64,000 nucleotides of DNA from Octopus vulgaris (lineage: Eukaryota), in the NCBI GenBank assembly GCA_951406725.2, contig OX597829.1, positions 36,890,001-36,954,000 of the forward strand. The letters are read 5' to 3'. This document shows positions 46,336-48,619 of this stretch, piece after piece (position 1 is the first letter of the stretch; each line of letters begins with the position of its first letter). Position numbers and translations under genes: made by a program. The notes under the pieces were generated by a model that was not told where the DNA came from, searched no databases, and was given only the letters and a program-made list of their open reading frames with translations.

Positions 46336-47043
46336 TTCTCTATTTTTTTACCTTAGGTTTTTAACATGATAAATGTATTATAGATGCCTGGTCCTACTTT
46401 TTAAGTTTCAAATTTAGTTAACGGAGTTTCTTCTATAAGAACAGTCATGATTTTATTTCTTTAAGAAATATTGTTTAATTCTATTTGATTATTTATTTAA
46501 CTATTATTGTAATTATTGTTGACCTGAGGAGTGACTATACTTTTAAATTGAATTGTTTTTCGATTAAATTAAAATTTAATTGTAATTCAAATTGAAGTTT
46601 TAGCCACAAATCGTACAAAGTCTTTTTACTTATTATATATTATTTATTAATTTTTTTGTATTTTTTATGATCTAGTTATATGTTTTATAATATATTTTAT
46701 TTTTTCTTTATGATTTGGTTTATGCCTATCATTGTTTGAATTAAATAATTGTTGTTTTTCTCTAATTTATGTATATTATATTTATATTGTGAAATTTGAT
46801 TTAATACTAAATTGAATTTTTCCTTGTAAGTTTAGAGTTATACTCCCTAATATTATATATGTATGCATACACACACACACACACACACACATATAATATA
46901 TAGTGTACATATAAACACATAAGGAATCCACTCATGGGATTCAACACGCTAGAAAGAACAGCTAGGTTCTATAACCACATAAATTCGGGGATAAAATTCA
47001 ACAGGAATGAAACGAAAAATAAAAACATTTTACCATCAAGTTT

Positions 47044-47120
47044 CCTGGACCAATTGGTTTCTGATTTTAGTTTAGCAAGCAAATAACATTTACTCACGAG
47101 GTGAAATCTTCATCAACAGG
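47044..47120 (-). ncRNA. Type I hammerhead ribozyme motif, U3 variant (left arm)
   Basis: Exact reverse complement of 47242-47318. Confidence 0.7.
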
Positions 47121-47241
47121 TACACCTTGGGTTAAATATTTATTGCCGGTGAAGGGCTGCGTCTGCAGTAGATTTTGAAAAAAATTAGGATATATATAGT
47201 TTGATCATCTCGTGTTTTTTATATATTCAACCCAAGGTGTA

Positions 47242-47318
47242 CCTGTTGATGAAGATTTCACCTCGTGAGTAAATGTTATTTGCTTGCTAAACTAAAATCA
47301 GAAACCAATTGGTCCAGG
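47242..47318 (+). ncRNA. Type I hammerhead ribozyme motif, U3 variant (right arm)
   Basis: CCTG TTGATGA A GATTT-loop-AAATC A GAAA CCAATTGG TC CAGG; predicted cleavage after GUC at 47314. Confidence 0.7.
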
Positions 47319-47547
47319 AAACTAGATGGTAAAATGTTTTTATTTTTCATTTCATTCCTGTCAAATTTTATCCCTAATTTTTGTGGAACCTAGCTGTTCT
47401 TTCTAGCGTATTGAATCCCACGAGTGGATTCCTTATGTGTTTAAATGTACACTATATATGATGACTAATACATAGTCTTTTTAGACTATATTTTTACATG
47501 TTAGGCCACTGTAAGTGAAAATTTCAATTAATTTTCCATTTCCCTTT

Positions 47548-47607
47548 GATATATATATACATGTATATATATATGTATATATATATATACATACATATAT
47601 ATTCACG

Positions 47608-47665
<58 letters not shown>

Positions 47666-47666
47666 C

Positions 47667-47717
<51 letters not shown>

Positions 47718-47791
47718 TATATATATAAATACATATATATATGTATATATATACATATATATATATACATATACATACATACATACATACA

Positions 47792-47831
<40 letters not shown>

Positions 47832-47945
47832 TACATATATATATACATAATACATGTATATATATACACACACACACACATATATATATATTCATATATG
47901 CTTATATATATGTATTTATATATATATATATATATACACATACAT
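47548..47945. repeat. (TA)n-rich microsatellite
   Basis: Direct reading. Confidence 0.95.
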
Positions 47946-48046
47946 AAATGTAGTTAATCCAAACATGAACAAAGAGAAAACACTACAAGAGGACATGTAA
48001 CAAGTATAGTGTTATTGGACGCTCAGGAAAGGAAAGAAAGAAGGAG

Positions 48047-48083
48047 GATTTAATGTTTCGAGCGGAGCTCTTCGTCAGAAACA
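48047..48083 (-). ncRNA. Minimal hammerhead motif in a probable solo PLE pLTR
   Basis: Minus strand: GTTT CTGACGA A GAGC-TCC-GCTC GAAA CA TT AAAT. Confidence 0.62.
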
Positions 48084-48619
48084 CAGAAAAAGGAAAGGCC
48101 TTAGGAAGGGAAAACAGAGAAAGAAAATCATCAACGATACACATGCGTTTCAGTGAGAGAAGTAGTGTTGGTGATAAAGGGGCAGGTGTTGCAGTGGGAT
48201 CTGGAGCACTGGAAGGATCGTGTGGGGCTGGGGGGAGGAGAAGGTGCTACAGACCAGAAGATCGCATAGGTTCTGGGCACGTATATATATAAGTATATAT
48301 ACATATATCTATCTGTCTCCATTGTCATGGAACCTCACCCAAGAAAACAAGAACATTGCTGTCCTCTTCTGAACAAAACCCCCCAAAAACATTTGTTTAT
48401 CATAAATGAACAAGCTGTTTGTACATTCATAAAATTCTATTTTACAAATTCGAGAAACGAATGATTCTGCTAATAATAATGAAGAAATAAAAAGATTTTT
48501 TCCAAAATTCTGACAACCATTTTTCTCAATATATATAGATGCATATATATACATGTATGTTCTTGTTTTTTTGGGTGAGGTTCCATAACAATGGAGACAG
48601 ATAGATAGAAATGTATATA

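Follow-up and report, generated by a model that had tools for sequence, protein, structure and literature searches.

Head-to-head copies of a repeat with a hammerhead-derived motif in the Octopus vulgaris genome, probably inserted by Penelope-like element machinery

In the hammerhead ribozymes described from metazoan Penelope-like elements (PLEs), helix I is short, helix II long and helix III palindromic, and passages of the same report already mention pairs of minimal hammerheads that lie 100-700 bp from each other on opposite strands (PMC4209133). Animal retrozymes form units of 150-450 bp (PMC7229834), or of 51-972 bp according to a preprint (10.64898/2026.07.22.740005); in the parts of both sources cited here, they are low in GC, co-occur with PLEs and are related to the pseudo-long terminal repeats (pLTRs) of PLEs. 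PLE insertions are described, in sections of PMC8557442, as showing 5' truncation, partial tandems (the pLTRs), an adjacent inverted 5'-truncated copy and TA-microsatellite targets. Purified PLE protein is reported to cleave and extend both DNA strands and to start reverse transcription internally (excerpts of PMC11167929), which offers a possible mechanism for head-to-head copies. Here we analyse a 64,000-nt stretch of the genome of Octopus vulgaris (assembly GCA_951406725.2, contig OX597829.1, forward strand, positions 36,890,001 to 36,954,000; hereafter the window, whose own coordinates are used throughout), in which a palindrome at 46896-47549 carries the same hammerhead-like motif in both arms. 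We conclude, with a probability of roughly 0.8, that the two arms are head-to-head copies of a non-coding repeat that bears a hammerhead-like motif, left by what was likely a single PLE insertion in which both strands of a cut TA/CA microsatellite primed the synthesis of complementary DNA (cDNA).

The motif, 77 nt long, was found at 47242-47318 on the plus strand and in identical form at 47044-47120 on the minus strand, both by reading the sequence and by a descriptor scan. A repeat search delimits inverted arms of 162 nt each (46981-47142 and 47220-47381), which are 94% complementary and separated by a gap of 77 nt; global alignment of the arms carries the homology further, to 47220-47459 against 47142-46896. 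The aligned arms differ by 14 substitutions and one 7-nt indel, all of them outside an unbroken identical stretch of 95 nt (47229-47323) that includes the motif. An initial annotation, made from the letters of the window, had noted the same motif in both arms and a ribozyme segment identical between arms that otherwise differ, and the alignment bears out both points. Its description of a 560-bp palindrome stands with respect to the inverted repeat; the symmetry and the end that it gave do not, since the right copy continues to about 47549.

The palindrome is made up of a longer plus-strand copy and a 5'-truncated, inverted minus-strand copy, placed head to head, of a dispersed non-coding repeat (Table 1). 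The left copy has the short-form 3' end ..TGTACACTATATAT, while the right copy has the long-form 3' end ..CCCTTTGAT and is itself 5'-truncated at the boundary between linker and unit. Both arms contain the rare core string TTGATGAAG, which is present in only four of 81 exact matches to the core pattern (with position 3 left free), two of the four being these arms. This points to one source for the two copies, and most likely to one insertion event. With one motif on each strand, a single transcript cannot contain the two in ribozyme form; only divergent transcription from the centre of the palindrome would yield both.

The right arm has at least 48 matches at 88-100% identity in the 2.8-Gb genome of the same species, counted on the best 40 of 2182 first-look candidates. 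At other loci, which were sampled from best blast matches or exact patterns, the repeat usually has a single arm that includes the sequence forming the loop in the window, and the matches run from about 47139 through 47459 or 47550. Upstream of the equivalent of 47139, many loci show a linker of about 57 nt followed by the 3' end of a preceding unit. As in retrozymes, units that measure a few hundred base pairs, each with a type-I hammerhead, occur in tandem: true dimers are present at three loci (L016, L022 and L133), with a period of about 477 bp, and one same-strand pair among the 81 core matches is spaced at 477 bp. Such a period leaves no room for an open reading frame (ORF) in the unit. 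No array longer than two units was seen among about 50 loci examined, and no same-strand pairs 1-10 kb apart occur among the 81 core matches, most of which stand alone within 1 kb.

The head-to-head arrangement recurs in the family. An inverted partner, about 30 to 240 nt long, lies just upstream of the 5' end at 17 of 28 unique loci (counted after removal of L003 and L028 as overlaps) and is lacking at the other 11; a same-strand partial tandem is present at eight of the 28, and eight have neither partner nor tandem. Every close inverted pair is oriented (-,+), including three among the 81 core matches, at distances of 136, 245 and 492 bp, and three in a pattern search for the sister subfamily B introduced below. 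The 3' ends are followed by simple repeats: 27 of 33 have at least five TA/TG/CA units within the next 45 nt, against 233 of 2000 random windows from the same loci, and five more run on into a next unit. Within the unit, these ends fall at two TA-rich places, ..ACTATATAT and ..AAGTAT, which would fit priming at a TA target. The 5' ends vary among loci and do not pile up at 47315, and copies continue straight through the predicted cleavage site. A separate observation concerns the assembled contigs of four runs, whose coverage of the locus was limited to 47271-47560 and parts of the left arm: in those of runs X1 and X2, sequence matching 47310 onward is preceded by unrelated letters. This break lies 5 nt before the predicted cleavage site and, judged from the contigs, suggests relatives that may have only the 3' module of the unit in common.

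The family therefore displays the inverted 5'-truncated neighbour, the partial tandems, the variable 5' truncation and the (TA)n microsatellite target bias of PLE insertions. Canonical insertions of endonuclease-containing (EN+) PLEs likewise show 5' truncation, partial tandems, an inverted 5'-truncated copy adjoining the 5' end and a bias towards TA microsatellites in the accounts of Craig et al. (2021, PMC8557442) and Frangieh et al. (2024, PMC11167929) as cited here; the window family differs from them in having no reverse transcriptase (RT) or GIY-YIG ORF between its repeats. In the mechanism that we propose, a PLE reverse transcriptase/endonuclease would cut the TA/CA microsatellite and prime cDNA synthesis from both DNA strands, and a single event would leave a longer plus copy and a 5'-truncated inverted minus copy, head to head. 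The templates would be longer-than-unit or circular RNAs, since copies cross the predicted cleavage site and can exceed one unit, and the 3' ends would arise at contacts between TA-rich parts of the RNA and the TA target. On this reading the motif descends from a canonical type-I PLE-style hammerhead, with the predicted role of cutting multimeric transcripts after C17 as a dimer joined through its 10-bp palindromic helix III, and the hairpin formed by the two arms would be a by-product and not a switch. We infer that the family parasitizes PLEs as a non-autonomous, retrozyme-like element.

The genome is rich in PLEs. Searching with PF01541 (GIY-YIG) yielded 6136 candidates, and 148 of 150 scored above the cut-off, many of them in open frames of 781 aa that encode RVT_1 together with a GIY-YIG domain at the C terminus. 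One PLE of the 781-aa type begins directly after a TA run and is a partial tandem. The repeat unit itself carries no RT and GIY-YIG ORF, and in the sample no sequence identity links it to an autonomous PLE's pLTR: when the unit and a tandem segment were compared by blastn with 30 GIY-YIG loci (with 1.5 kb on either side) and 20 PLE loci of 7 kb, the only matches were two of 23-30 nt at chance level. Pfam searches of open frames of at least 110 aa near family copies (76 of 100 frames, overlapping ones having been dropped by hand) recovered one mariner-type transposase fragment and two RT fragments. The two RT frames were rejected as a partner of the repeat, as on extension they proved to be either similar to long interspersed nuclear elements (RVT_1 with zf-RVT) or unrelated to the PLE frame. 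Two further features of the PLEs themselves were noted: the 3' untranslated region of one 781-aa PLE (L061, 4950-5400) contains about four tandem repeats of about 100 bp, each with a TGATGACGTC-type word, and an open frame of 330-386 aa without a Pfam match precedes the RT frame in several PLE copies.

Read along the plus strand, the right motif (47242-47318) consists of CCTG, TTGATGA, A, GATTT, 35 nt, AAATC, A, GAAA, CCAATTGG, TC and CAGG. It departs from the type-I hammerhead in the 5' core, where the window copy reads U3 U4 G5 A6 U7 G8 A9 in place of C3 U4 G5 A6 N7 G8 A9. G12 A13 A14, the A15.1-U16.1 pair and H17 are all present (GAAA at 47301-04, U16.1 at 47313, C17 at 47314), and these sites vary in 0-2 of 31 copies. 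Three helices with an open helix I can be drawn, helix III being either 3 bp long or the 10-bp palindrome. In place of a G10.1-C11.1 pair closing directly on the core there is a G-C pair (47254/47299) that stands one nucleotide per side away from it, with the variable 47253 on one side and A 47300 on the other. The A opposite A that the initial annotation noted at this place is a variable site, with A, C or U across the family.

A relaxed hammerhead descriptor, which allows Y at position 3 and optional 1-nt bulges and asks for a palindromic helix III and a minimum stem length of 4 bp, matched only the two palindrome sites in the window, and matched three times in 800 random first-order Markov windows of 64 kb on both strands. 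The motif is not a chance string. When folding is constrained to the hammerhead, the predicted energy is -14.6 kcal/mol, within 0.4 kcal/mol of the minimum of -15.0 kcal/mol. A dimer through the 10-bp palindromic helix III is predicted at -41.2 kcal/mol, compared with 2 x -15.0 kcal/mol for two monomers, which accords with the earlier suggestion that the palindromic helix favours dimeric cleavage.

The origin of the motif is indicated by a sister subfamily in the same genome. Subfamily B, with 33 matches at no more than two mismatches, carries the canonical core CUGAAGA in a motif of otherwise similar layout (CCTG CTGAAGA A GATTG...AAAATC A GAAA CCAATTGG TC CAGG). We regard the motif of the window as hammerhead-derived because of this canonical core, which also supports the hammerhead architecture first read from the window. 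Position 3 is T in 72, C in eight and A in one of the 81 core matches, and a reversed core pattern, used as a control, gave no matches. With overlapping loci and four segmental duplicates left out, subfamily A, to which the window belongs, has T in 22 and C in two of 24 copies, and a further subfamily, C, has T in 20 and C in three of 23, whereas subfamily B has T in one and C in 19 of 20. U3 is thus not a private mutation of the window, an explanation that the initial annotation had asked to be checked.

C3 is the universal state of hammerheads, and U3 therefore probably arose once; the most likely course, inferred without an outgroup, is a single origin in the ancestor of subfamilies A and C. 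Divergence from the majority sequence is similar in the three subfamilies (A 9.7%, B 7.8%, C 8.2%) and, being calculated on biased samples, gives no age order. One copy (L095, 1454-1547, minus strand) joins the U3 core and 5' flank of subfamily A to the helix II loop of subfamily B, and is either an intermediate or a recombinant between the two. Five copies of subfamily C (L115-L119, contig C17, 67.5-79.5 Mb) are bordered left and right by identical sequence and count as segmental duplicates or as pieces of a larger repeat, not as independent insertions.

The evidence for constraint on the motif is modest. In the 5' core strand of 31 copies, variation is concentrated at N7 (11 of 31) and at the nucleotide that follows A9 (13 of 31); G5, A6 and A9 are invariant, a change is seen once at U4, and U3 and G8 are each altered three times. 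N7 is the one core position that hammerheads leave free, and in the 81 core matches it is A in 23, C in 14, G in 22 and T in 22. The distal hairpin of helix II differs between subfamilies in both sequence and length and retains its pairing: the strands are AGCGAGU / ACUCGCU in subfamily B and AGCGAAUA / UAUUUGCU in subfamily C, and the L134 type of subfamily A forms 11 perfect pairs. An alignment of 33 sequences, hand-picked to represent the subfamilies, contains two compensatory pairs in this hairpin (G-C 19, A-U 11, G-U 2; and U-A 26, C-G 3, U-G 2), and pairing holds in 94.6% of its helix cells, a share that stays at or below 47% when the register is slid; on 50 sequences there is only one two-sided pair.

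Compared with the type-I hammerheads of metazoan PLE pLTRs, as presented in the cited parts of Cervera & de la Pena (2014, PMC4209133), the motif is alike in its 4-bp helix I and long helix II, in the variable extra nucleotide after A9 and the G-C pair that opens stem II, and in a palindromic helix III predicted to act as a dimer. Both families also occur in high copy number, mostly as single truncated motifs, with opposite-strand pairs 100-700 bp apart. The window family differs in having U3 opposite G8 and not C3-G8, where the paper reports a compensated U3-A8 form; in an extra A between C11.1 and G12, which turns a one-sided bulge into a 1x1 mismatch; in an insertion of 25-35 nt in helix II that forms a second hairpin; and in a unit without an ORF and without similarity to a sampled PLE. 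With animal non-LTR retrozymes, in the accounts drawn on here (Cervera & de la Pena 2020, PMC7229834; preprint 10.64898/2026.07.22.740005), it shares a non-coding unit, a few hundred base pairs long, with one type-I hammerhead and a low GC content (32% in the window unit, with less than 45% reported). The occurrence as monomers, dimers and partial tandems and the co-occurrence with PLEs are likewise common to both, and a mismatch at the base of helix II is also known, as a U-U, from the axolotl HHR_Amex2 motif (PMC7229834). Unlike those retrozymes, the window family consists mostly of dispersed single or head-to-head copies and is known here from DNA alone, and its hammerhead has no recognisable loop-loop tertiary contacts and is unmatched by Rfam.

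Several results weigh against our reading of the locus. The Rfam hammerhead models gave no match at the gathering threshold nor at E<=10, on either 651 nt or 106 nt of the locus. (One match to another Rfam family, MIR7502, at 47099-47263 with E = 0.0022, was rejected; the model scores the centre of the palindrome as a hairpin precursor, at 41 bits against a gathering threshold of 71.) The folding energy of the monomer is ordinary relative to shuffled sequences (z = -0.12). U3 breaks the C3-G8 Watson-Crick pair, and a 1x1 mismatch (N opposite A) separates the core from the G-C pair of stem II; weaker catalysis would be expected from the U3 opposite G8 of the window's clade, which diversified all the same. 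The covarying pairs number only two, a count reached by 305 of 500 shuffles, and stem I, proximal stem II and stem III hardly vary and thus provide no evidence from covariation. Taken whole, the motif varies no less than the sequence around it (5.8% against 4.8% in 31 copies), and block-wise conservation was rejected on these figures. The lack of similarity to any of the 50 PLE loci means that the unit is not tied to any specific mobilising PLE, and the proportions given for the family may be biased by the way in which loci were sampled.

A rival view, to which we give somewhat less than even odds, is that the motif of the window's clade is a dead relic: cleavage would have been lost through the change from C3 to U3 together with the mismatch where helix II begins, and the repeat would have spread regardless. 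PLE-type machinery would then need no hammerhead, and the conserved helix II hairpin would serve, for example, protein binding or template recognition. Besides the missing Rfam match even at E<=10 and the U3 opposite G8 in 72 of 81 copies, the low in-vitro activity of even canonical metazoan PLE hammerheads (in the passages cited from PMC4209133) speaks for this view, as do statements in PMC8557442 that PLE clades without hammerheads proliferate well and that the motifs may merely 'parasitize' PLEs. Copies also cross the predicted cleavage site without a pile-up of 5' ends at 47315; however, circular or uncleaved multimeric templates would produce the same continuity. Against a relic stands the pattern of variation after U3 arose: the free position N7 came to hold any of the four bases, and the rest of the core did not change from one subfamily to the next. 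Natural hammerheads with core deviations are moreover said to keep (reduced) activity in the cited part of PMC3088659, and a natural UGUUGACGA core is cited in a passage of PMC7151607. That the U3-G8 wobble became fixed clade-wide without an A8, with at least two subfamilies arising since, the remaining core kept and helix II repaired by compensatory changes, is a tentative proposition that we rate as rather unlikely. None of the papers that we found on hammerhead C3-G8 and C3U variants describes a U3-G8 family in a retroelement, although the supplementary figures of PMC4209133 may show similar variants.

Two further explanations concern the palindrome itself. Only against long odds would it be a hairpin locus selected for a function, whether that of a ribozyme switch or that of giving rise to small RNAs. 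As an RNA, the whole palindrome is predicted to form a stem about 240 bp long that is very stable (-379.6 kcal/mol; 100 shuffles, z = -45), and the 95 nt that bear the motif are identical between the arms. Yet 17 of 28 loci show this architecture, their partners being of any length, which fits a by-product of insertion, and the arms have decayed through their 14 substitutions and the indel, mostly at CpG-type sites. Several of the differences in the outer arms are of the CpG-to-TpG/CpA type (e.g. 47349, 47362-3 and 47421), while the identical stretch contains a single CpG. The contrast between the identical motif and the diverged outer arms is therefore largely a matter of CpG decay and small numbers, and we read no selection into it. 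Masking of the ribozyme by transcription of the whole hairpin, as proposed at the outset, is retained in the sense that, on read-through, the motif would be enclosed in an RNA duplex about 240 bp long; a regulatory design under selection is not, given the 17 of 28 loci that share the architecture. Hardly credible, finally, is a foldback transposon or miniature inverted-repeat transposable element whose terminal inverted repeats contain a hammerhead-like string by chance. The locus does have long inverted repeats, and the chance rate of the descriptor, about three matches per 102 Mb of strand, would imply on the order of a hundred matches in the 2.8-Gb genome. But an inverted partner is missing at 11 of the 28 loci, most of the 81 core matches are alone within 1 kb, and the partners that exist are 5'-truncated to differing extents and always oriented (-,+). 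Partial tandems and a tandem period of 477 bp, together with a sister subfamily with the canonical core, also disagree with such a transposon.

On the preferred reading, then, a retrozyme-like repeat was inserted head to head in ordinary PLE style, and the case is noteworthy only for the clade-wide U3-G8 beside a C3 sister. The value of the result lies mainly in annotation: inverted 'twin hammerhead' hairpins in animal genomes are to be taken as footprints of PLE insertion and not as ribozyme switches. The sister subfamilies also amount to a natural experiment, as they differ at the catalytic C3/U3 position within one genome and at similar divergence. Their comparison bears on whether the hammerheads of PLEs and retrozymes are needed for propagation, a question left open in the cited parts of PMC8557442 and PMC4209133. 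If the U3 copies cleave, the C3-G8 Watson-Crick pair would be dispensable, on the scale of a family, in dimeric PLE-type hammerheads; if they do not, such elements would spread without ribozyme activity.

Table 1. Features of the palindrome and of its right-hand motif, in coordinates of the window.
Feature	Position	Strand	Remark
TA/CA microsatellite, presumed target DNA	46852..46895	.	borders the left (inverted) copy at its 3' end
5'-truncated inverted copy of the repeat unit	46896..47142	-	corresponds to 47220-47459 of the right copy; arm alignment and blast self-match
Left hammerhead-like motif	47044..47120	-	identical to the right motif; descriptor scan; predicted cleavage after C17, 47048
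Longer copy of the repeat unit	47139..47549	+	other loci match 47139-47550 at 84-88% identity
Palindrome 'loop', 77 nt	47143..47219	+	5' head of the right copy, missing from the truncated left copy
Right motif, stem I	47242-45/47315-18	+	4 bp
Right motif, 5' core strand	U3 47246; U4 G5 A6 47247-49; N7 47250; G8 A9 47251-52	+	
Right motif, variable A after A9	47253	+	
Right motif, proximal stem II	47254-58/47295-99	+	5 bp
Right motif, distal helix II hairpin, 10 bp, GUU loop	47265..47287	+	minimum-energy and centroid folds
Right motif, 3' core	A 47300; G12 A13 A14 47301-03	+	
Right motif, helix III and C17	helix III 47304-13 (CCAATTGG); C17 47314	+	predicted cleavage between 47314 and 47315
Long TA-rich microsatellite	47550..47900	.	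abuts the 3' end of the right copy

Other hammerheads were seen near the palindrome and elsewhere in the genome. About 500 bp to the right of the palindrome motif, beyond the TA microsatellite, the minus strand contains a canonical minimal hammerhead motif at 48048-48082 (GTTT CTGACGA A GAGC TCC GCTC GAAA CA TT AAAT), with C3, a one-sided bulge after A9 and an opening G-C pair. The surrounding stretch of about 160 bp (47989-48147) is a high-copy repeat, with matches at 90-93% identity among the best 40 of 2213 first-look candidates, and parts of three GIY-YIG loci (L066, L070 and L047) resemble it with a similarity of 84-86%. Upstream of this second repeat, 48153-48290 on the minus strand is 77% similar over 143 nt to part of a locus with a PLE frame (L064), on the strand opposite to the upstream open frame of that locus. 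A canonical PLE-type hammerhead (TTGG CTGATGA GTACT..(46 nt)..AGTAC GAAA CGATCG TA CCAA) was found at L039 (454-536, plus strand, with a matching site on the minus strand) and at L080 (1489-1571, plus strand). The two hammerheads of L039 form an inverted pair adjoining a GIY-YIG fragment, and this type parallels the motif of the window in its 4-bp helix I, its large helix II insertion and its palindromic helix III.

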